Source: Eledone cirrhosa (Eukaryota). Taken from it: a stretch of DNA of 64,000 bases. The stretch spans positions 27,404,001-27,468,000 of the forward strand of contig OZ024746.1 of NCBI GenBank assembly GCA_964016885.1. Direction: 5' to 3'. Made by a program: the position numbers and the translations under genes. Every line of letters begins with the position of its first letter. Positions within the stretch are counted from its first letter, which is position 1. The notes below the pieces were generated by a model, which saw only the letters and a list, made by a program, of their open reading frames with translations, was not told the DNA's origin and ran no database searches. Positions 25,421-59,190 of this stretch are shown here, piece by piece.

Positions 25421-25852
25421 CGTGATATGATATACTTAATAAATATATATATATATATATTTATATATTTTATATTATTCATGTATATATATATTCTACT
25501 TTTATATATATATATATATATATATTTCGTTTCTGACAATATATGAACAATCGTCTGGTTGTGGAACCAACCAACCAACCGGAAATTTATAAATTCCTAA
25601 ATTTATGAATTTAATTTATAATAAATTGAAGTGAAAGCAACTGGTGCGTGTGTTTCTTATTGGCAACATGACCCTCCCAAAGCATAACAATATATATACA
25701 TATATATATATATTTATTAAAATAATAGATTAAAGTTTAAGCAAAGAATCGGTGCTTTCACCCTTAACGAGCCTTCTTTGAATTTTAGTCCTCAAATTTA
25801 TTATTATTACTATATATATATGTATATATATATATAAATGAAAAGTATAGAA

Positions 25853-43546: not shown

Positions 43547-44150
43547 AATGCGGGTAAAATTCCCGAGATCCATGGACGAGTTCTCTCCAGCGGTCTCTGT
43601 CCCTCATTATCGCTGCCATGTCCTGCGTCTCCAACAGACCAGTGTCTGTCCTTAGGGCATCAACATACGTTAACCTTGGTCTTCCTCTTCTAGTGTGTCC
43701 ATGTAGGGGCTCCTAAAGGAGCACTGAGTGCAATGTCAACTCTGGATGTCGGTGAGCATGTCCAGCTAACCTCAATCTCCTCTGTGTCACTTTTGAGCTG
43801 ACTTTTGGGATGCTCCCATACAGCTCCGAGTTTTTCATCCTCAGTGTATACTGATTAATGTTCAGTAAAGCCGCTAGAATTGGTTGAGGGCTTTCTGTAT
43901 TTGGGAGCAAAGATTGGGTATACGGAAGATGATGTGGTTGAGAGGAAGAGCAAGGCCTGGGCGGCGTGCCACAGCTTGAGATCGGTGTGGAGGTCGGACC
44001 TTCGTAGAGACCTGAAAATCCGCCTCTTCATTAATGTAGTGGAGTGCTGTATGGGTCTGAGACTTGGACACTGACCAAGAAACTCACTCAGATGGTGGAT
44101 GGGTGCTACACGAGAATGCTGAGGATGGCTCTGAACATTAATCAGTATAC
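43547..44150 (-). mobile_element. RTE LINE insertion with inverted 5' segment
   Basis: 43547-43865 is the RTE 3' end on the minus strand. 43872-44149 is the immediately upstream RTE segment on the plus strand. Both contain CTGAACATTAATCAGTATACAC. Confidence 0.85.
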
Positions 44151-44732
44151 ACACATATATATATACATATATATACATTTACATAGATACATACACATAT
44201 ACATATATACATATATACATATTTACATAGATACATACACACATACATATAAACATATATCCATATATACATATATACATGTGTACATACTTCCATACGT
44301 ATATAAATGATAAATACAAAAATATAAATAGATACATACACGCATACACTCATATCCTTATATCGACCCTGTTTTGTGAGTGAAACTGAATACAGGGAGA
44401 CTGTGAAATCCCATAGATTGGCTGTGTCTATAATTTAGCGTTCCAGATATTGTATTTCGCTGATACGGCTTAGAAAATGAATTAATGGGAGATGTATCTA
44501 TGGAATATTCATATTACATGTTAAGTCCTGAGATTTTAGTTCATTGTATCGATCAACTGAATGTTCATCATCGGGTCTGACGGAGAATCTATCATATCCA
44601 TCCAAATATATTTTTCCCTTATTTCTTTGGCATCAAGATATTCCATGAATAAGCATTCTTATCATAATATAAAGGGTTTTTATATATATATAAATAAATA
44701 TATATATATATGTGTGTGTATGTATATGGTAC

Positions 44733-45854: not shown

Positions 45855-47790
45855 AATTATTATTATTTCTATTATTATTATTATTATTTTTATTTTCTTT
45901 CATTATTGTTTCTGAGATATATCCCGAGTGTCTTCCTGACACCTAGGGCAAATACATTCACAGTGTGCATTGGTAAGCCAGTTAATACAGCACATTGATT
46001 ATAATAAAAACAAAACAAAAAACAAAACAAAAAAAACAGTATACATATCTGTGCATATGCATATGCAAATACAAGGAAGGACACCAATCCCACAGAGACA
46101 GGGCTCTTCTCAATACGTGTGCAGTACCAATCAAAACAATTTTTTGCACCTTGTGCAGAGAGGGTAAACCAGGAATCATTCGCAAATATTGTTCTGTTCC
46201 TTTCTTGATCATTCCCAGTCCTCCCACAATCACTGGTATTGTAACGGCCTTGAGGTGCCACATTTTCTCAATTTCAATAAGCAGATGTTTATATTTTCGT
46301 AGCTTGGCAAATTCCTTTGCCGCGATATTGTGATCATACGGGATGCTCATATCTATCAATAAACAGACCTTGTTATTTTGATCTTTTACAATGATGTCAG
46401 TATGTACAGGAAAGTCCTAGAGAATTGTTACTTTTTCTCCTTCAGTTACAGCCTCAGGGTGATGATTGTACCACTTGTCTTCAGCTTTGATTTTGTAATG
46501 CCGACATATTACCCAGTGTAGATATTGGCCAACTCTGTCATGTCTATATTTGTATTCTACTGGTTCTAAAACTCTACACCCAGAGACTAAGTGATCCACT
46601 GTTTCAACCTCAGTACCGCAGAATCGGCACTTTGGGTTTATTCCGTTCCTCATCACATTGGCCTGGTAATTACGAGCTTTGATCTTGGGCAGCTAAGATG
46701 AAGCCTTTACTCTCCGCCTTTAGCCCTGAACTACGTAGCCACTGATGGGTGTGCATTTGGTCAACATCAGCTTGTTTGCTACAGGCCACATATTTGCCAT
46801 GCAGAGATTTCTGCTCCCAATTTGATGCTAATTGTCCTTGCCCTTTTGCTTTTGCCAGTGATTTTATGTGCCTAGCATCAGTTGCAACAGTTTCTTTAGT
46901 CTGTCCAGCCTGGGTATCAAGCATGAGATCAGTAGCATATGTTTTCCTCTCCTTCAATATAGAATGAAGCTTCTTACTTCTCTCATGCTTTTCAACAAGT
47001 TTCAGCATACAGTCGTTAGTTGTTTCAAGGTATTTGGCCAGTCCAATGATGGTGGTCTTGTAAGTAAGTTCAAATTAGATCAGGCCACGGCCTCCTTGAG
47101 TTCTAGGAAGGTAAAGACGACCCACATATGCTTTTGGGTGGTGCATCTTATTACAGGTCAGTAGCTTATGGACTTTGGTGACAATTCTTTTGATTTCACT
47201 CATATTCCAGTTGAACACACCGAAGCTATAAGTGACAACTGCGACTGCCAAGGAATTTATGGCTAGCAACTTGTTACGAGCGTTTAGTTCTGATCTCAGA
47301 ACTGCATGTACTCTCCTGTAACATTCTTTCCTTATCCTCTCTTTCATACTGGCATGCCAGAGCCCTCATTAATCCCTAAGTATTTATAGGTTTGTTCCTG
47401 CTCAAGTTCCTTTATGATTGTTTCAGCATCCAATTCAACTGAGTCTGATTTGACAAGCTTCCCCTTCTTGAAAGTGGCTTTTGCACACTTGTCAAGTCCA
47501 AACTCCATCTTGATGTCATCGCTAAACGTTTTTACTGTCCGCAAAAGGCCTTCCAGTTCGTCATTATCTTTGCAATATGGCTTCAAATCATCCATATAAA
47601 ATAGGTGGCTTATTTTTTTGTTGTCAATTCTATAACCGTACCCTGTTCTATTAAGTTCGGATGTAAGGGGTACTAAAGCAATGCAGAAAAGCAAGGGTGA
47701 AAGTGAGTCACCCTGAAATATACCACAGTTGATGTTTATATTCCTAGAGCACAGTACCCTAGTGGAATGAGACAATTGGAGATTTGTGTT
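45855..47790 (-). mobile_element. 5'-truncated R4/Dong-like LINE with (TAA)n tail
   Basis: RT motifs GIFQGDSLSPLLF and LFYMDDLK, CCHC finger CRFCGTEVETVDHLVSGC, RLE region IDMSIPYDHNIAAKEFAKLRKY, with several frameshifts. (ATT)n at 45855-45888 on the plus strand. Confidence 0.9.
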
Positions 47791-48828
47791 CGGGCATCCG
47801 AGTCCCAAATCCAAAAAGCTTTGGGACATGTGTGGGCAAAAAAACCCCACATCAGACGTGGGCAGAAATATGGAACCGTGGACGTATTCTTTGAAACACC
47901 ACAGGAGGCCAGAGAACACTCCATGGCCCCATTAAGAAGTGACGACTTTACACTCGTCCCAAGCTATTGTGGCCAGAGACTCGTGAAGATCAGGGTGACC
48001 CACGTTCCACCGGCCATCGAAATTCCCTGGCTAATAGCTGCCGTCCTCGCCGGCATCGAAGCCAACACCAAGATAATCGAAATAGCGAAAGAAAAGCAGG
48101 AGAACTGGTCCGGATCTGGGTTGGAGCTCCTGATACAAGCGAACCAAAAAAGCATTGAGGAGATCCCAGAGGTAATAGACCTCGCTGACGGCAGCCACCT
48201 CACCGTAATCGTCGAGGGCAGAAGCCCTAGGTGCGTCGTTTGTGGTGAAGGAACCCACCTAAGGGCTTTCTGCCTTCAGGCTAAAAGGTTGAGGCCACCT
48301 CTCTTACCCACCCCAGTGACTCAACCATCAACACCACCAGCAGCAGAGATGGCAGCAACAACTGTAGCAGCAACAACAGAAGCAACTGTAACAGCAACAA
48401 CCCCAGCAACAGTAGCAAAACCAACACCATCATCACCCAACGCGCCAGAACTAGCACCAGCGCCTACACCATCCACCACACCACAAACAAAACCAACGTC
48501 TGTGGAGGATTTTCCACTACCCTGCCTATCACAACTGGAGACAGATTGTGACGACGAGGAGTGGGAAACGGTATCAGGAAAAAAGAAAAAAAGAAACCAA
48601 AAAGAAAATATTCTCTTCCCTCCCCCTCCAAAAACAAAATACAGAGGGGAAACAAATAAACTATCAAACACCAGCATCACCAACCCCATCACCACAAAGA
48701 CCAACACCATCACCATCATTAACCCCAACACCACCATCACCAACACCACAAAAGTCACCAAAAAGCGAAACAGAAACAAACCCACAACAAACGCAAACAA
48801 AACAAAACAAAACAACACTACACAGCAT
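47791..48828 (+). pseudogene. Isolated ORF1 fragment of a second Tx1-like family
   Basis: RASESQIQKALG...VPSYCGQ...THVPP...CVVCGEGTHLRAFC is homologous to ORF1 at 50061-52158. No ORF2 follows. Confidence 0.85.
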
Positions 48829-48831
48829 TAA

Positions 48832-49825
48832 ATTATTATTATTATTGTTGTTATTACTCCTTGAGTCTCAGTCATTGATGTTAGTTAACCGGAAAGTCCG
48901 TTGGAGTGAATATCAAGCCACTACCTGCAGCCTCAGATATTCAGGACGTATGGGAGGGTTCTTGCTGTTCCCAGCAAGCATGCTTTTTGAAGCGTTCCAA
49001 AAAGCGTGAAGGGGCCGATTTTCTTTAACCATCCCTGGAAACTTTTGGAGATAGTCCCCAGTGCGCCTATGACAATCGGGATCACTTTGACTTTGACTTC
49101 ATGGCAGTTCCAAATCCTTTTTACCTCCCACTTTAAGTCCTGGTATCGGTTAATTTTCTCCCTCTCCTTCTCTTGCACTCTCGTGTCGAATGGGCAGGCC
49201 ACATCCACAATCAGACACGATCTTTTTTCTTTGTCTACAACCACCAGGTCAGGTCTATTGTGTTCCAGTTTCTTGTCCGTCTGTATCCTAAAATCACACA
49301 GCACCTTCACCTGATCGTTCTCCATCACCGCCTCTGGCTTATGCTCATACCATTTCTCAGAATGTGGTAAATTGTTTACTTTGCACAGGTGCCAGTGGAT
49401 CACCCTGCCCATCACATCATGTCTCCAGCCCTTATAGTGGGTCTGGGCTAGGTGTTTACACTCGGATACAATGTGAGCCACAGTCTCCTCTCTCTCCACA
49501 GATCCTGCACAGTGGGCTAGCCTCCTCCTTGTAAATATGGTGGTTCAACCACTTCGTATTGAGGGCCTGCTCCTGCGCAGCCATTAACATTCCTTCTGTA
49601 GCCTTTTTAAGGTCTCCTCTTCTCAACCAGTTCCATGTCTGTGGATCTCTAAATTCAGTTTTCTCAAAGAAGGTACTATGAAGGGATTTTTCCTGAAGGC
49701 TGCTCTTTCTCCTTGATGTTATTTCCTCCTTGGACATCCCCTGGCCTATTGTCCCCTCCTTCAGTACAGTTCTGAGCATTGGCTCCTTACTATCAGTCAC
49801 GTATTTGTGTAGGTTGTTTTTCTCC
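48832..49825 (-). mobile_element. 5'-truncated R4/Dong-like LINE (different subfamily) flanked by (TAA)n
   Basis: AAQEQAL, CRICG...ETVAHIVSEC finger (frameshifted) and RPDLVVVD...IVDVACPFD...EKINRY endonuclease. (ATT)n on both sides. Confidence 0.9.
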
Positions 49826-50060
49826 TTATTATTATTATTATTATTGAATGCCATGGTTGACGGAGGCTCGGCTCTGTAAGGTATAGTAATTTTTAACCGT
49901 TAAAACAATTGTAAATTGTTTAAAACTTGAACCAAATTGTTGATAAAGACACCCTCCTCCTCGTGAGAGGGGTCTTTCTGTCCGTTATTTGGCCCTTCGG
50001 GGTTAAATAATCAGTTATTGGGGTTTTGTACCCAAAATTTCATTTTAAACAAAAAACAAC

Positions 50061-52158
50061 ATGGCTACGAAAAAGAAATTTCATACGTCACTCCCACTCA
50101 TTCCGTCTTCTTCTTCCTCAATCATCACTACAGCAGAGAGAAGATTGTCTCTCTCCCTCCCTTCTTTAAATGTGTCTCTCTCCCTCCCTTCTCTTTCGCA
50201 AGTGACGAAAGAAAAGAAAAGTCTCGTGCAAAGCGTGCAAGGTTTCTCCACGACGACGACGACAGCGACGAAACAGGTGTGCGGGAAATACGAAAACCCA
50301 GTTCATTCGTCTGACGTCAGGAATAATAGCAGTAGCAGCCGTAATAACAACAGCAACAGTGACAATGAAAACAACAGTAGCAGCCGCAACAGCATCACCA
50401 GCAGCATAAACAACAACAGCATTAGCAGCAGCAACACCAACAACAACCACAGCAACAGCGGCGGAGGCAGTAGTCGTAGTACCTGCAGCAACAACAAAAG
50501 TACCAGCAGCTCTGACGACAACAACAACAGCAGAGAAAAACCAATCTCATTTGCAGGTATTGCGAAAAACTTGGAAACAATCCTCATAACAAATGAGGAA
50601 TTAGAGGAAGCGAAGAAGATGGTGACAAAGAACGGACACCGAGCAATCTGCAAGGCAGCGAAAAATTTTTTCGAAACCCAAGAGCACTGTACGGTCACGT
50701 ACCGTACAGTAAGTACAAAATCCCGTAGGGTGGAAAGAGCCACAGAGGCCCAAATACAAAAAGCCTTGGGGTCTGTGTGGCAGAGGAAAACGGACATCAC
50801 CCGAGGCAAAAAATACGCCACCGTAGATGTACTTTTTGCCACACCCCAGGAGGCAAAGGCCCAATCAGTAGTGACCCTAAGGAGCGAGGAAATGGTGTTG
50901 GTGCCCTCCTACTGCGGACAAAAAAATTGTGAGGGTCAAACTGACCCACGTCCCCCCCGGAATGACCCCTTCTTGGCTGGCCGCGTCTGTCCTCGTCGGA
51001 ATCGAGGACAAAACAACTGTACTGCAAGTACAGAAAAAAGTAAGAGAAGATTGGGTCGGCTCCTCCATTGAGATGCTAATCCAAACCAACCAGGAGTGCA
51101 TCGAAGCTATCCCGGATGTGATAGACTTCGATAACGGCACTCAACTGCCCATAAGTGTTGAGGGCAAACGCCCGAAATGCTTTCGCTGTGGATCGAAGAC
51201 TCACCTCAGGGCCTTCTGCAACGAGAAGACCCTGAGAAAGGAGAAAACCCCCCTCCTTCCGAATCCGGCTCCACGGCTACCAGCAACAGGACAAGCGGCA
51301 ACCAGGAACGATAGGTCCGTGGCACCCATACCCACTCCACGGAAATCAAAGACAGCAGCAGCAGTGGAAATATTAACAACAACAACAGCAATACCAAATG
51401 CAGCTGCAACAGAGACTCCAGTGCAAACATCACCAACAACAACAAGTGAAAGAGTGGAGCTGGTACCCCTCCCCGACCTTACAGAATCAGACATGGAGTG
51501 TGAGGTGGGAGAGGGATGGCAAAAGGTCGTAAGAAGGCACAAACGCAGAAGCAGCGCATCGTCGCCTTTGAAAAGGGAGGAAAGAAATGAGAAAAGGGTA
51601 AAGTCTACTGCAAAGAGACCCACAGCAGCAACACCACCAACACCATCACCACCCACACCAGCACCACCATCACCACCGGCGACAACCCCACCGCCAACAA
51701 CACCTTCAACACCACCACCACAAGCACCAACATCGCAAACACAACAACAAAACACACACACCCAGCAACAACGACAAGAAAATAGCAGAACCACACCCCA
51801 CCCCCAGAAAAACAAATGCACGGCAATAAACACACACAACAAGAAACTAATGACTTACATAATTGAACACACAGACATTTCACAACAGGACTACATAATA
51901 CCAGCACCAATCAAAACGCCAACTAACATAAGACTGCTAAAAATAGCACAGAAACAATACACAAACATTAAAACGAAATTCCCCAACGCAGTTGGTGATT
52001 TCAGGGACCTAGGAGGAACCTTCAATCGAAGAGTATATTCAGACATTCTCTTAGAAGAGCCGACGACCAGCCGAAGGGACGATTCAACGGTCCCTTCACC
52101 AGACGATCAAGTGAAAAGGGATGTAAAAACCATCCCTCCTCTACCAAAAGTACGGTAA
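50061..52158 (+). CDS. LINE ORF1, gag-like nucleic-acid-binding protein with CCHC knuckle; one frameshift at 50920-50926
   Basis: Joins ORFs 50061..51071 and 50929..52158. Contains CFRCGSKTHLRAFC and WQKVVRRHKRR. The paralog at 47.8 kb reads through the frameshifted position in one frame. Confidence 0.8.
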
Positions 52159-52192
52159 GTGGTCTTTCCCATCTTTTCCACTCTATTTAAAC

Positions 52193-55100
52193 ATGACCTC
52201 ACTCAGAATAGGCAGCATAAATGCGCGTGGCTTGGGGTCGTCATGGAAGCAGGGTCACCTGCTCAACGACCTCAGGTCACTAAACATAGATGTAGTGGCC
52301 ATCAGCGAGACCAGAATCTCCGAAGCACTGGCCTTCGCACCGATCTTCGGCGGCTACGATGTGTACGCATCTCCCAGCCGTCCTGGATCGGGTGGAGGAG
52401 TTGCTGTGCTTTTTCGGAGAGGTTTGGATCTCGCCATACGGGCCATCTTCCTGGACCCAGAGGGTAAGCTGGTGGTGCTGGACGTGACCAGCGGAGACGG
52501 GCAAGCTTTCAGGCTAGTGGCCGTCTATGCCCCGACAGGAGCAGGGCGGCCTGATTTCTTCCGGCGTCTGGAGACCTTTCTTGGAACGTCCCGCTCTTTA
52601 GTGTTAGTGGGCGACTGGAACGGGATCTTAGATGCACGCTGGGACTGTGTGGGATTAGCGGATAGGGGTGGAGGGTGCAAGAGCCTCACCAACCTGCTCA
52701 GGCGTTTTGAACTGTCCTACAGGTACCGATTGGATTTCCCGAATGTGCCAATGTGGACTTGGACAAACCGCATAGGGTCATCCAGATCATATCTAGATAG
52801 AGTATTTTGTAGGGAAATAGATAGGTCTAGCATAGGCTGTCCACAATTCAAGATAGTCAGCTACACGGACCACAAATTCGTGACCTGTGTGCTTGACTTA
52901 GATAGGCTTCATAGACGAGGACCCGGCTACTGGAAGCTAAACGCGTCCTTACCAGCGCGCAAGGCCTACAGAGACCGGATTAGCGAACTAGTTAAGCGGG
53001 CGTTGACGGGGGCCATCGTCAACAACAAGTGGTGGTTTGCTCTGAAAAGAGCGATTAGAATAGAATCGATTAGGTTTAGTAAGGCTTTAGCAATAGAGAA
53101 AAATAGAGCAGAGGGAGAACTAGTTAGAAAATTAGACGAGGCGCTTAGCAAAGGCATTGCGACCGACGTGCTTGCGGCGAAATTGGCCCTTGACCAATTC
53201 TTCAATGCAAAGCACGAAGGCTGCGTTGTCAGAGCTAGGGTGCGTGCTCTCAGACACGAGGGGACGAAAGCCGTTCAATGGGCCCGAGTGGCGGAGGCGC
53301 GTCGTGGCAACAAAGCCACGATCCGGTCTTTGGTGGACCACGACGGGCGCATGCTACTCGATCCCGGGCAAATGTGTGAAGCTTTTCAGCGACACTTCGC
53401 TCAGCTGTTCGGGGGCAGCGGGGGGCCGGGTAGAGGGATGGACTTTAGTGTCTACATCGACGGACTGCCGCGGCTCTCGGCCACTGAGGCGAGGTGTTGC
53501 GAAAAGCCGATAACAGCCGCTGAAGTACGGGAGGCAATGACTGGCTGCACAAGGGGTAAATCGCCTGGTTTGGATGGTCTGCCCTATGAACTTTACGTAC
53601 AGATGCCAGACTTGTTCGGAGGCCTCTTGGCGGACGTCTACTGCAACTGGCAACAGAACGGGAGAATTCCCAGTTCTGTGAGCCGAGGAGCGGTGGCACT
53701 GCTGAGAAAGGATCCGAACAAGGGGGATAACATAGACAATTTCCGGCCCATAACTCTGCTAAACACAGAGTTTAAGATTTTGGCCAAGGTGCTAGCAAAG
53801 AGGTTGGCGCTTGTCGTTGGTGGTCTGGTGGGAGAGGCGCAGACATGCGCCATTCCCGACAGATCCATCCACGACAACCTCCACCTCATGCGATACATCG
53901 TAGAGAGGGTAGCTAGGGAACCTGGCACGGGTGGGTCCTTGATCAATTTAGATCAGTCGAAAGCTTTCGATAGGGTCGACCATCGTTACCTAGCGGCAGT
54001 CCTGAGGGCGGCTGGCTTTGGGCCCGTCTTCAGAGGCTGGATCGCTGCCATGCACAGCGACATCTGCTCTGTGGTGAGAGTGAACGGTCACCTGTCGGAA
54101 CCGTTCAACATCATGCGCTCGGTCCGCCAAGGATGTCCCCTCTCGTCCCTCTTGTACGTATTGACGCTCGAGCCATTACTGCACAAACTGGAGACGTTGA
54201 GGGGAGTCCCGCGCGAACTAGGATGCGGAAGATCCGTGTCAGCATATGCGGACGATGTCACCGTAGTGGTGTCGAACGCCAAACACATCGAGGCGATCGG
54301 CACTACACTAAGAGAATACGAAGCGGTGACAGGAGCAATGATCAACCAGGAAAAGTCAGTGGGCCTGCAGCTCGGCACCTGGAGAGGCAGGTCCATGCCG
54401 TCCAACAGCGTCGTCGGGCGCTGGACGGACGGACCGGTTAAATTGCTAGGGGTCTGGTTCGGTCCGGACCTCCAGACGGACAAAAACTGGGACGAGGTGA
54501 CGAGCAGGGTGGCTTCTCTCACCCAGAAATGGGCGGAGAGGAAGCTATCCCTGAAAGGTCGAGCGGAGGTGGCTAACGCGTACATCGCGTCTGTCATCTG
54601 CTACCGCCTAACCGTCGTACCTTGTCCTAAGCCTCGCCTGACTGCGCTGGAGCGTTTGCTCTTTCGCTTTTTGTGGAAGGGACGTGCTCCGATGGTCAGG
54701 CGGTCCATCTGTTGTCAACACCCGCTACGTGGAGGGCTGGGCATGCCGTGGCTGATGATGCGCAGGCACGCGCTCAGGCTACGACATCTCCACCTCTTCC
54801 TCGACGGTGATCAGGTGTGGTCGCCGTTTGCTAGACGCGTTTTTCCCCAGCTCGTTTCCTTGACGGAGCTGCAGTCCTGGGTCAAGCGAAGACCGAGAGG
54901 GAGCGCCTGGAGACTGGAATGTCTTCAGGCGCTCACAGCCCTCGACCAATCGGGCAATGTGATCGGTGGAAACTCCACCTCGGCGTTCTATAGAGGATTA
55001 GTGGAGGGGAAGAGCGACGACGTACTTGGGGAAACTCTAGGCGTCGACGAAAATCAACTAGCCAATCTCTTCGGAAGAACTTTCGGGCCAGGGCCTAACT

Positions 55101-55606
55101 TCCAGAAATCTCTGGCCTGGCAGTGCTACCGAGGAGCCTTGCCAGTTCGGGATAAACTCTACAGGCATGGAGGTGCCGTCAGCCGGGCATGTCCGAGATG
55201 CGCGCAGGGCGACGAAACCGTCCTGCACGCACTCGTCCAGTGTCCGAAAATTGCTGACTTGTGGGTTTATGTCGAACACCTGCTGTCGCGTTTAGGACGG
55301 ATCCAGCTATCATCTGAGTCCATCGTGAGGATTGCCCCGCCCTCCTCCTTTAGCCGGGAAGGGCAGGCAGTTTTTATCTGTCTGGTGGCCATGGCGAAAG
55401 AGATAGTATGGTGGACACGTTTGAAAGGGCTGAAGACGAGCACTTACCTCTTCGGTGATGCTCTGATTGACTTTTTCAAATTTCATTTGAAAAGGAAAAT
55501 CAGAGTAGAGAGGGAAGTGCTCTCTTCCCAGCATTTTGTTGAAAGATGGGTGAGAGAAGCAAGAATGGCCCGAGTGAATGGGCCGACTCTGAGTATATAT
55601 CTGTAA
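52193..55606 (+). CDS. LINE ORF2 (1137 aa): APE endonuclease, reverse transcriptase, C-terminal CCHC finger
   Basis: APE motifs SINARGL, ISET, VYAP, GDWN, LDRV, TDH. RT motifs KSPGLDG, FRPITLLN, DQSKAFDRV, VRQGCPLS, AYADD. GPGYWKLN linker typical of L1/Tx1. Finger CPRCAQGDETVLHALVQC. Confidence 0.97.
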   Translation: MTSLRIGSINARGLGSSWKQGHLLNDLRSLNIDVVAISETRISEALAFAPIFGGYDVYASPSRPGSGGGVAVLFRRGLDLAIRAIFLDPEGKLVVLDVTSGDGQAFRLVAVYAPTGAGRPDFFRRLETFLGTSRSLVLVGDWNGILDARWDCVGLADRGGGCKSLTNLLRRFELSYRYRLDFPNVPMWTWTNRIGSSRSYLDRVFCREIDRSSIGCPQFKIVSYTDHKFVTCVLDLDRLHRRGPGYWKLNASLPARKAYRDRISELVKRALTGAIVNNKWWFALKRAIRIESIRFSKALAIEKNRAEGELVRKLDEALSKGIATDVLAAKLALDQFFNAKHEGCVVRARVRALRHEGTKAVQWARVAEARRGNKATIRSLVDHDGRMLLDPGQMCEAFQRHFAQLFGGSGGPGRGMDFSVYIDGLPRLSATEARCCEKPITAAEVREAMTGCTRGKSPGLDGLPYELYVQMPDLFGGLLADVYCNWQQNGRIPSSVSRGAVALLRKDPNKGDNIDNFRPITLLNTEFKILAKVLAKRLALVVGGLVGEAQTCAIPDRSIHDNLHLMRYIVERVAREPGTGGSLINLDQSKAFDRVDHRYLAAVLRAAGFGPVFRGWIAAMHSDICSVVRVNGHLSEPFNIMRSVRQGCPLSSLLYVLTLEPLLHKLETLRGVPRELGCGRSVSAYADDVTVVVSNAKHIEAIGTTLREYEAVTGAMINQEKSVGLQLGTWRGRSMPSNSVVGRWTDGPVKLLGVWFGPDLQTDKNWDEVTSRVASLTQKWAERKLSLKGRAEVANAYIASVICYRLTVVPCPKPRLTALERLLFRFLWKGRAPMVRRSICCQHPLRGGLGMPWLMMRRHALRLRHLHLFLDGDQVWSPFARRVFPQLVSLTELQSWVKRRPRGSAWRLECLQALTALDQSGNVIGGNSTSAFYRGLVEGKSDDVLGETLGVDENQLANLFGRTFGPGPNFQKSLAWQCYRGALPVRDKLYRHGGAVSRACPRCAQGDETVLHALVQCPKIADLWVYVEHLLSRLGRIQLSSESIVRIAPPSSFSREGQAVFICLVAMAKEIVWWTRLKGLKTSTYLFGDALIDFFKFHLKRKIRVEREVLSSQHFVERWVREARMARVNGPTLSIYL

Positions 55607-55854
55607 ACTAAAGGTGGAAAACTGGGAGAGGGCACTTGCCTTGGTGGTCAGGGTCATTGTGGCTTTTTACTGGGCTTTCTCCACAAATGTCCCTCCGAAG
55701 TCTCCCCCCTATTGGGGAATTTTTCATTGTTATTTTTTGTTACATCCTCTGTTTATGTTTTTTACACGCAGAAATGCCCATTTGTACCGTCCTGCATTGT
55801 CCTGCACTGTCCTTAATGTCTACTTTATGTAAACCCTTGTGGTTAATAAAGAAA

Positions 55855-55946
<92 letters not shown>

Positions 55947-56035
55947 ATCATTATTATTATTGTTGTTGTTGAACTGATAGATTGTATGAAAAAGGACTGT
56001 TAGTATTTAGTTGAAACACAGTTGTGTAGCCTCTG

Positions 56036-56473
56036 ATCACATATCTGTATGGTAGTCTGTGTATATCACATATCTGTATGGTAGACTGTGTATATCACAT
56101 ATCAGTATGGTAGTCAGTGTATATCACATATCTGTATGGTAGTCTGTGTATATCACATATCTGTATGGTAGTCTGTGTATATCACATATCTGTATGGTAG
56201 TCTGTGTATATCACATATCAGTATGGTAGTCTGTGTATATCACATATCTGTATGGTAGTCTGTGTATATCATATATCTGTATGGTAGTCTGTGTATATAA
56301 CATATCTGTATGGTAGTCTGTGTATATCACATATCTGTATGGTAGTCAGTGTATATCACATATCTGTATGGTAGTCTGTGTATATATCATATCTGTATGG
56401 TAGTCTGTGTATATCACATATCTGTATGGTAGTCTATGTATATATCATATCTGTATGGTAGTCTGTGTATATC
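56036..56473. repeat. 29-bp minisatellite, about 15 copies
   Basis: Unit CACATATCTGTATGGTAGTCTGTGTATAT repeated head-to-tail with few substitutions. Confidence 0.95.
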
Positions 56474-56581
56474 AGAGGCTGAAAGAGAATATATAACAAC
56501 TGAAATAATTATGAAGTCTCAACAGATTTCACAAGAGAACGTTCAGAGATACAGCGAGATAGAGATAGATAGAGAGAGAGA

Positions 56582-58101: not shown

Positions 58102-58147
58102 ATATATATATATATATATATAAAGAAATAGACATACATGCATACAT

Positions 58148-59190
58148 ACATTGACTTTAGGAAAGCCTTTAATTCTGTGGACCGTTACTGCCTGATGAAG
58201 ATCTTACAGGCTTATGGAATCCTCAAGAAGATGGTGGACCTGATATCACTGCTCTACACCAACACCAAAGCCCAAGTCATTACACCTGATGGGATGACAG
58301 AGTTCTTTGAGATATTGGCTGGAGTGCTCCAGGGAGATACATTGTCTTCCTACCTTTTTATCATCGCAGTGCATTATTGTATGCGCCTTGCGCTGGAGAA
58401 ACACTAAGACTCTGGCTTTACAGTAGCACTGGCTCAGAGCAGGAGATTTAATGCTAAAAAGATATCAGATGCTGAATTTGCTGACGACATAGTTCCGGTG
58501 ACAAACCCAGTGAAGGAGACAAAGGAGTTGTTGCAGGAGGTGGAGACTGTGTCCATGAGTGTGGGGCTGAGAATGAATGCGATTAAGACGAAGTATCTGG
58601 TAGAGAACATTAAGAAGCCAGAGATAGGCGGGAAGTCGCTAGATTTGGTTGAGGACTTCCTGTATCTGAGAGCAAAGATTGGGAACACAGAGGATAATGT
58701 GGTTGAGAAGAAAAGCAAAGCCTGGGCGGCGTGCCACACTTTGAGATCGGTGTGGAAGTCGGACCTTCGTAAAGACCAGAAGATCCGTCTCTTCGTTGCT
58801 ACAGTGGAGTCGATGCTACTGTACGTGTCTGAGACTTGGACACTGACCAAGAAACTCACTGAGATGGTGGATAGGTGCTGCACGAGAATGTTGAGGATGG
58901 CTCTGAACATTAATCAGAGGTTGAAGAACTCAGAGCTGTACGGGAACCTCCCAAAAGTCAGCTCGAAAATAACACAGAGGTTAGCTGGACATGCTCACCG
59001 ACATTCAGAGTTGACACTACACTCAGTGCCCCCGTGGGCGCCTCTACACAGACACTAGAAGAGGGAGACAGGGGTTGACATTGATGCCCAGACACTGTTC
59101 CATGGGAGACGCAGGACATGGCGGTGATGATGAAGGACAGAGACCGCTGGAGAGAACTCGTTCATGGATCTCGGGAATTTTAGCCGCCCT
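58148..59190 (+). mobile_element. 5'-truncated RTE-clade LINE (RT to 3' end), degenerate
   Basis: IDFRKAFNSV, GVLQGDTL, EFADDI, VESMLLYVSETWTLTK, LAGHAHRH, with in-frame stops and deletions. Confidence 0.9.

Follow-up and report, generated by a model that had tools for sequence, protein, structure and literature searches.

Four elements at one ATT repeat

Between positions 45855 and 55970 of the window, which denotes the whole analysed stretch of 64,000 nucleotides from Eledone cirrhosa, four elements lie at one ATT repeat: a pair of Dong-like copies, both on the minus strand, and a pair of Tx1-like copies, both on the plus strand. Read from 5' to 3', the order is (ATT)n, a copy of Dong family 1 (Dong1, -), the ORF1 of a Tx1 subfamily B element (Tx1B, +), (ATT)5, a copy of Dong family 2 (Dong2, -), (ATT)6, a Tx1 subfamily A element (Tx1A, +) and (ATT)15(GTT)n. 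Element-by-element mapping bears out the order and the strands given in the first-pass annotation, which had also claimed that no unique host DNA separates the elements; indeed, every stretch between the arrays is matched by related copies elsewhere, and hence the nest contains no host DNA. The left and right flanks of the nest, through which an empty paralogous site was sought, each have one match in the genome, that is, both are single-copy.

The nest opens with an interrupted (ATT)n array (45856-45887, +), which is the 3' (TAA)n flank of Dong1. Of this element the last 1.9 kb are present (about 45888-47791, -; RVT_1 with an E-value of 6e-13, tblastn matches to Dong ORFs of other loci), comprising the end of the reverse transcriptase (RT), a zinc knuckle, a restriction-like endonuclease (RLE) and the 3' UTR, with several stops and frameshifts; the copy is old, with 4.0% divergence from the nearest copy (median 4.8%). 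At 47791, Dong1 and Tx1B meet head-to-head with a 1-base overlap and no ATT array. A repeated chimeric family was rejected as an explanation of this joint, which is spanned by none of the 39 other matches listed.

The Tx1B piece (47791-48834, +), delimited by comparison with other Tx1B copies, is an internal ORF1 fragment that corresponds to about bases 423-1472 of 5425, so that about 4.4 kb are missing (roughly 0.4 kb at the 5' end and 4.0 kb from the 3' part); it diverges by 3.3% from the nearest copy (median 6.2%). It ends at a ATTAAATT site, which carries a SINE insertion in 4 of the other 29 Tx1B copies. The following array, (ATT)5 at 48832-48846 with imperfect units to 48854 (+), is not the end of Tx1B itself, copies of which continue into ORF2 elsewhere, but the 3' (TAA)n flank of Dong2. 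The piece does not represent a non-autonomous ORF1-only family, since ORF2 sequence lies downstream in 28 of the 29 other copies, and recombination between Tx1A and Tx1B inside ORF2 was rejected as the cause of the missing part, because the window copy is in the A state at nearly all diagnostic sites, to its last bases. A crossover of the two subfamilies inside the tail array is conceivable.

Dong2 is represented by its last 0.97 kb or so (about 48855-49825, -; 5'-truncated), with a zinc knuckle, a PD-(D/E)xK-type endonuclease and the 3' UTR, and differs by 1.2% from the nearest copy (median 2.5%). Between its truncated 5' end and the 5' end of Tx1A lies an (ATT)6 array (49826-49845, +) that Dong2 copies elsewhere do not include; insertion of Tx1A at an ATT-like site inside Dong2 was rejected, as such a site is absent at this place from the other Dong2 copies. 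Tx1A (49846-55856, +) is full-length and young, 0.35-0.5% from other copies. Its ORF1 encodes a CCHC knuckle and, compared with another copy, has a 1-base frameshift near 50920, its ORF2 (52193-55606) is intact and encodes 1137 aa with an APE-type endonuclease, an RT and a zinc finger, and its 3' UTR holds AATAAA. An (ATT)15(GTT)n(ATT)4 array (55857-55972, +) closes the nest. The proposal that the elements converge on a single (ATT/TAA)n site needs qualifying, since the joint at 47791 lacks ATT and Tx1B is incomplete.

A separate ORF1 with a CCHC zinc knuckle is typical of Tx1 elements. Both ORF1 types, A and B, contain a CX2CX4HX4C knuckle, and ORF1 is open over 701-702 aa in other copies. 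The Tx1A ORF2 matches PF03372, PF00078 and PF13966 above cut-off, and its best solved relative is human L1 ORF2p (E 6e-51), with R2 behind at 1e-21; it therefore combines an N-terminal APE, an RT of the L1 group and a C-terminal zinc finger. From this architecture and general knowledge of the clade, we take subfamilies A and B to be Tx1; the homologues and cluster members of Tx1 and the 120 listed homologues of Dong included no element names, and for clade naming NCBIfam gave only a sub-threshold RT match. A Tx1 sister family with ATCT-type flanks is 67% identical in ORF2 and about 62% in the endonuclease, the latter in an alignment that left out 4 of 8 proteins, which were not N-terminal pieces. 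In one SINE-bearing stretch, Rfam gave nothing above threshold.

A full Dong2 ORF of 1141 aa, 96% identical to the window piece, is present at another locus (L160). It is a single ORF with RVT_1 and no APE family in Pfam, its best solved relatives are R2 proteins, and residues 1029-1102 align weakly (i-E 0.056) to the C-terminal region of R2. One ORF, a non-LTR RT, a C-terminal PD-(D/E)xK endonuclease, no APE and insertion at (TAA)n on the sense strand are the hallmarks of Dong/R4, for which a Myb/SANT-like domain at the N-terminus, lacking zinc fingers, and a 5' HDV-like ribozyme are also described in the parts consulted of PMC7998251 and PMC3774820. The Pfam search of the L160 ORF matched no Myb family; the regions of both features fall outside the fragments of the window. 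The label Dong-like denotes architecture and (TAA)n insertion, and placement in R4 is putative.

Opposite polarity throughout the genome

An evenly spaced 1-Mb sample drawn only from contigs C1-C7 and C28 contained 87 ATT arrays; Tx1A/B made up 4.4% and Dong 1.8% of it. At the arrays, the 17 Tx1 junctions (in 11 stretches) without exception face the ATT strand; of 27 Dong junctions, 25 face the TAA strand and two the opposite way. Counted by stretch, the Dong bias taken alone is 7 to 2 (p=0.18). SINE junctions have the expected polarity in 20 of 24 cases, with four facing the other way. In the same random sample, 8/8 Tx1A/B 3' ends are followed by at least five ATT units and 15/17 Dong ends by at least three TAA units, the other two beginning with AATAAT.

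Searched copies gave the same picture. At least three TAA units on the element's own strand follow 56 of 58 Dong 3' ends, and own-strand repeats are present at 27 of 29 Tx1 3' ends and at 29 of 29 Tx1A 5' ends, without a single case on the other strand; of random 25-base windows, 0.24% hold at least three ATT units and 0.31% at least three TAA units. Among 135 searched element ends, 35 had neighbours without a library match, six lay next to an unclassified repeat, and the 94 classified neighbours obeyed the polarity without exception: Dong and Tx1 (34 pairs) or SINE (10) are always opposite, and Dong and Dong (17) or Tx1 and Tx1/SINE (33) always have the same orientation. It should be noted that these copies are best matches and not a random draw, that tandem arrays among them are not independent, and that the first 3'-end search skipped very common words and therefore returned mostly older copies. 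Nevertheless, the statement that RLE elements face the TAA strand and APE elements the ATT strand, and that the two endonuclease types share one target, agrees with both data sets, and the nest is typical of the Eledone cirrhosa genome.

It might be argued that Tx1A and Dong seek each other's ends and that the ATT array is only a part of a larger recognised site. Insertion of one transposon into another is known for Xenopus Tx1 and crocodilian Tx1-Mar, and Tx1 families targeting other transposons are described in the part consulted of PMC4494074. Young Tx1A copies indeed lie tail-to-tail with a Dong 3' end in 10 of 19 cases (nine by scripted scoring), compared with 15 of the 87 arrays of the random sample (p=0.002). 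However, the excess is not significant against long random arrays (9/35, p=0.07) and is absent inside the random sample (2/15 versus 8/72, p=0.68), and the neighbours are varied, including three Dong 3' UTRs, a SINE, other Tx1 copies, the leader of another repeat and unique DNA. Mutual attraction is therefore improbable: of the expected genome-wide co-occurrence and orientation bias, the latter was found, but adjacency of Dong and Tx1 does not clearly exceed the prediction from long arrays.

Targeting of pre-existing arrays

All 19 young full-length Tx1A copies whose ends were recovered have ATT on both sides, with a median of 10 perfect units at the 5' side and 15 at the 3' side. Together with the counts for 3' and 5' ends and the 8/8 of the random sample, this is far above the rule that more than 20% of flanks should agree for target specificity. 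One array inside another repeat is empty at two loci (L223 and L234) and filled with Tx1A at three (L092, L091 and L301). The presence of ATT on both sides, and of arrays that exist empty elsewhere, argues for targeting and not only for tails.

The opposite reading would be that there is no targeting at all, and that Tx1 and Dong carry their own ATT and TAA tails and accumulate in tolerant regions, with arrays and polarity as by-products. The longer 3' arrays make some tail addition likely, and the 5' array of a full-length Tx1A could ride on the RNA. Yet 5'-truncated copies also begin at arrays: the own-strand repeat precedes 14 of 26 truncated Tx1 and 42 of 56 truncated Dong copies, the other-strand repeat none, and some of the remaining 12 and 14 copies, which have no 3-unit array at the 5' end, are alignment breaks. 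In addition, a SINE with a Tx1-like tail has target duplications in 49 of 99 cases (4-11 with shuffled flanks), with a median length of 14 bases and an ATTAT start in 35 of 39, which places ATTAT already in the target. One array occurs in both filled and empty form, and tails alone would not impose fixed orientations on 94 of 94 neighbours. Thus, an explanation by tails is largely refuted and very unlikely.

Still less credible is an assembly artefact that joined repeats through ATT arrays, because both flanks are single-copy, the 47791 joint contains no repeat, the pieces differ in age and carry private mutations (as judged from divergence from related copies) and junctions of these types are common throughout the genome, and although in four public runs none of the listed short-read contigs bridges the 47791 joint and none spans the nest, these may come from other individuals or species, so that the missing bridge proves nothing.

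The claim that each insertion regenerates the target is supported by the two-sided ATT of Tx1A, the truncated Dong copies behind TAA and the clumping of Dong ends, at least two of which occur in 6 of 100 stretches (1.3 expected, p=0.002). Regions tolerant of insertions could likewise produce such clumping.

Proposed mechanism and comparison with known systems

Most probably, the nest arose by four successive insertions of two unrelated LINE classes in fixed opposite directions into ATT/TAA repeats, the fixed facing likely being due to nicking of, and priming from, different repeat strands. The sense strand carries (TAA)n in Dong-like copies, usually at both ends, and (ATT)n in Tx1A/B copies, at both ends. 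For a Dong RNA with a (UAA)n end, priming would start from a nick on the ATT strand, and for a Tx1 RNA with an (AUU)n end from an AAT-strand nick immediately after ATAAT; we infer the nicked strand, and the respective control by endonuclease and RNA tail, from the sequences. After an insertion, an array persists on either side and serves as a landing site for later elements; each event would leave two arrays in place of one, so that nests would grow. Dong1 and Tx1B would have been the earliest, followed by Dong2 and then Tx1A. The ATT-free joint and the absence of both Tx1B ends indicate that deletions shaped the nest; two deletions, probably at the 5' joining of Dong or afterwards, would have taken the Tx1B ends.

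The 28S rDNA is a multicopy target shared by an APE element, R1, and an RLE element, R2, which use separate sites in the gene in the same orientation and create no new target. The present pair resembles R1/R2 in combining the two types on one multicopy target and differs in its opposite orientation and target-creating insertion. Sharing of one simple repeat by two families in fixed opposite orientation has a precedent in SART and TRAS in the telomeric repeats of Bombyx, as far as described in the part consulted of PMC10088271; however, both are R1-clade APE elements, whereas here one partner is of the RLE type, the endonucleases are unrelated, and the target is a dispersed repeat, made in part by the elements.

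That Dong inserts at (TAA)n is already known: the parts consulted of PMC7998251 and PMC3812793 state that it is targeted in most insects, molluscs and cnidarians, and PMC13282606, consulted likewise in part, reports for Octopus vulgaris that Dong-R4 is abundant and has recently been active. The copies in Eledone resemble Bombyx Dong, DongAg, DongBg and Darwinula Dong1/2 in their single ORF, RT, C-terminal restriction-like endonuclease and sense-strand (TAA)n at both ends, and on the Dong side the only novelty is that at least three families share arrays with an APE class. Tx1 elements that target microsatellites include Kibi at (TC)n, Koshi at (TTC)n and crocodilian Tx1 at (TTCC)n/(TTTC)n, and SINEU is a Tx1-mobilised SINE; the 20% rule is the one used in PMC4494074, as given in the part consulted. 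Two ORFs, an APE-RT-zinc finger ORF2, insertion in microsatellites far above that rule, tandem arrays and a SINE with similar tail and target are common to them and the copies described here, which differ in their (ATT)n target, which an RLE element shares from the opposite strand, and in having a sister family with ATCT-type flanks. The literature searched yielded no Tx1 target of (ATT)n that is shared with an RLE clade, and (ATT)n is likely a new target for Tx1-type LINEs. What the genome-wide counts add is an APE and an RLE class, each using its own strand of a single dispersed repeat.

The mechanism of microsatellite targeting is described as poorly understood (PMC3812793, in the part consulted). 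Here the question becomes directly testable through intact copies that are nearly identical, thousands of SINE footprints marking the nick and a sister family whose target differs. Nests of Dong and Tx1 explain repeat hotspots and are likely sites of assembly and annotation errors. A more speculative possibility, which we hold to be rather doubtful, is that a self-feeding cycle of Tx1, Dong and SINE makes most long ATT arrays of the Eledone cirrhosa genome, each class building the target for the other, and that closely related Tx1 families switched between ATT and ATCT. If so, control by the endonuclease and by the RNA tail would be separable by swaps within a natural pair. In the present analysis, 21 of 35 long ATT arrays touch a Tx1A/B or Dong element.

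Anatomy and history of the nest

Within the window (G000:C6:27404001-27468000 of the 3.0-Gb assembly), where AT microsatellites are plentiful and the repeat content is probably similar to that described for octopods in the available text of PMC13282606, sequence features and domain families bore out the order and strands of the elements that the first-pass annotation had placed in 45856-55972. After an opening (ATT)n array, the nest holds a copy of the Dong-like family Dong1 (~45888-47791, minus strand; several broken frames and an RT fragment, RVT_1, E 6e-13), followed by an ORF1 fragment of the Tx1-like subfamily Tx1B (47791-48834, plus), an (ATT)5 array, a second Dong-like family, Dong2 (~48855-49825, minus), an (ATT)6 array, a full-length Tx1A (49846-55856, plus) and a closing (ATT)15(GTT)n array. 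In this Tx1A, ORF2 stays open over 1137 aa and matches APE, RT and zinc finger families; its nearest relative among solved structures is human L1 ORF2p. A complete Dong2 ORF from another locus contains RT and no APE, and its nearest solved relatives are R2 proteins, to which the C-terminal nuclease region is a weak match. The two Dong proteins are only 34-45% identical; Tx1A and Tx1B are 38% identical in ORF1 over the aligned part and have an ORF2 in common (95% at the DNA level). RTE-like LINE fragments adjoining (TA)n/(CA)n tracts flank the nest (43713-44178, minus; 58132-59058, plus), and a 29-base tandem repeat lies immediately to its right (56036-56474).

An assembly artefact is argued against by the single-copy flanks (one genome match each), by the repeat-free joint at 47791 and by the frequency of like junctions elsewhere in the genome; no short-read contig spanned the nest, and none of those listed bridged 47791, in runs that possibly come from other individuals or species.

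The joint between Dong1 and Tx1B at 47791 lacks ATT, has a 1-base overlap only and is absent from the 39 other matches listed. The array to the right of the Tx1B fragment is not the end of that element, as ORF2 sequence lies downstream in 28 of 29 other copies; the window copy retains approximately bases 423-1472 of 5425. It breaks at a ATTAAATT site, and a SINE is inserted at the identical position in 4/29 other Tx1B copies. Divergence from other copies (nearest; median) is 4.0% and 4.8% for Dong1 (35 copies), 3.3% and 6.2% for Tx1B (36), 1.2% and 2.5% for Dong2 (53), and 0.35% and 0.46% for Tx1A (4). These differing distances, the losses from Tx1B and the ATT-free joint indicate that the nest grew stepwise, with two deletions. 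In a simple history, Dong1 and Tx1B would have arrived first; Dong2 would then have been primed at ATTAAATT and its 5' end joined at the Tx1B tail array, with a loss of 4 kb; and Tx1A would have entered the same tail array last. Deletions at a later date would fit equally well. Recombination between Tx1A and Tx1B inside ORF2 was ruled out, since the window Tx1A belongs to subfamily A throughout. The subfamilies (47791-48834 and 50049-52158 in the window; L154-L159) share a 95%-identical ORF2 and 3' UTR and differ in their 5' UTRs, and one locus (L156) joins a B-type ORF1 to a mostly A-type ORF2, which suggests swapping of 5' ends.

Orientation of elements at ATT arrays

The rule that elements with a restriction-like endonuclease (RLE) face TAA and APE elements face ATT holds beyond the window. 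Each search yielded 40-41 matches, of which 30 were fetched, the window's own copy being excluded; these are best matches and include non-independent tandem copies. Among them, at least three ATT units follow Tx1 3' ends in 27/29 and precede Tx1A 5' ends in 29/29, at least three TAA units follow the 3' ends of Dong1 in 27/29 and of Dong2 in 29/29, and no fetched copy has the opposite-strand repeat at its Tx1 or Dong end; the background rate for at least three units is 0.24-0.31%. The expected 3' end was fetched for 20 young Tx1A copies and present in 19, all of which have ATT on both sides (median 10 perfect units on the 5' side, 15 on the 3' side). A Dong, Tx1 or SINE neighbour was identified at 94 of the 135 junctions of these searched copies, and every one of them obeys the polarity rule: opposite-facing Dong-Tx1 (34) and Dong-SINE (10), same-facing Dong-Dong (17) and Tx1-Tx1/SINE (33). 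The remainder have no library match (35) or adjoin an unclassified repeat (6). Three more unclassified repeats adjoin arrays in fixed orientation (L024, L025, L033, L039, L070, L081) and are possibly the ends of further Dong-type families.

The bias is also present in unselected DNA. In 100 stretches of 10 kb, taken at 20-Mb steps from contigs C1-C7 and C28, 87 arrays of at least four units were found; junctions were ATT-sense in 17/17 cases for Tx1 (11 stretches; p=0.001 by stretch) and in 20/24 for the SINE, and TAA-sense in 25/27 for Dong (7 vs 2 by stretch, p=0.18), a few matches being self-hits of minor library entries derived from these stretches. All eight sampled Tx1A/B ends run into at least five ATT units, and 15/17 Dong ends into at least three TAA units, the other two starting AATAAT. 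Another multicopy repeat (1088-1099 and 25798-25809 in the window; eight sampled arrays) has an invariant (TTA)4 ahead of a (TA)n tract; it is mostly unoccupied and raises the counts of short ATT arrays.

Arrays as target or tail

No upstream array can travel on the RNA of a 5'-truncated copy, and such copies start at arrays in 42/56 cases for Dong and 14/26 for Tx1, always on their own strand. An ATT array in another multicopy repeat is empty in two loci (L223, L234) and filled by Tx1A, with ~54 bases duplicated, in L092/L091/L301. The tail of the SINE, which is abundant (~100 3' ends per Mb), could be aligned to 5/5 Tx1 ends tested (p 0.002-0.025) and to 0/3 Dong ends. Target duplications, of median length 14 bases, flank 49/99 SINE copies, against 4-11 after flank shuffling; 35/39 begin ATTAT, and G never occurs just before the nick, where the base is C, T or A. 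Together, arrays at truncated 5' ends, the empty and filled array and the SINE duplications identify the ATT arrays as target. We infer that Tx1 proteins mobilise the SINE; if so, the nick would fall on the AAT strand after ATAAT, with all conserved bases on the primer side, compatible with endonuclease recognition or with base-pairing between the primer and an RNA tail of (AUU)n. Long duplications with ATT runs at both ends (~54 and ~125 bases) flank some Tx1A copies (L092/L091/L301, L111/L112/L319, L119/L320) and could be either long target duplications or tandem duplication.

Sharing of arrays and novelty

The co-occurrence expected of a landing pad shared by both clades was found in part. 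Ten of the 19 young Tx1A copies lie tail-to-tail with Dong, several hundred-fold above what placement at random would give (~0.001) and more than all random arrays (15/87, p=0.002), but not significantly more than long random arrays (9/35, p=0.07); no Dong-Tx1 excess exists inside the random sample (2/15 vs 8/72, p=0.68). There, 21/35 arrays of at least 24 bases touch Dong or Tx1, and Dong ends are clumped (at least two in 6 stretches vs 1.3 expected, p=0.002). On present data, a common preference for long, pure arrays, many of them element ends, suffices to explain the adjacency.

Opposed insertion of Dong and Tx1 at ATT is genuine, extends across the genome and represents a variant of microsatellite targeting as already known; PMC4640811 sets out the general scheme. 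The Dong half is already known, in that TAA is given as its target in insects and molluscs (PMC3812793, PMC7998251, PMC3774820); in their available text, PMC3812793 places Dong among APE elements and PMC7998251 gives it a REL endonuclease. The opposite-strand principle has a precedent in SART and TRAS (available text of PMC10088271), the likeness being opposite orientation within one repeat, which for SART/TRAS is telomeric. For the Tx1 clade, the available text of PMC4494074 lists TC, TTC, TTCC and TTTC as microsatellite targets, and its figure or supplements may name further targets. Recent activity of Dong-R4 and L1-Tx1 is reported in Octopus vulgaris (PMC13282606), in whose available text the words nested and target are absent; that of PMC9115989 has no occurrence of Tx1. 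A Tx1 that seeks ATT, the SINE that goes with it and the sharing of its target with an RLE clade appear to be undescribed so far, neither ATT-specific Tx1 nor Dong-Tx1 sharing having been found in the portions of the literature searched.

A sister Tx1 family (L215, L218, L228, L264, L296, L221; random sample), 67% identical to Tx1A in ORF2 and ~62% in the endonuclease, has ATCT/TCTA-type 3' flanks at 6/7 ends and no ATT array, an apparent target switch between close relatives. Tx1A 5' ends are 99.7-100% identical, many in head-to-tail arrays with ~6.07-kb spacing; at G000:C3:316825605-316845200 (L151, L152) and elsewhere, such arrays hold four or more full-length Tx1A copies that are nearly identical; ORF1 and ORF2 are open in several of them, and the subfamily looks recently active.
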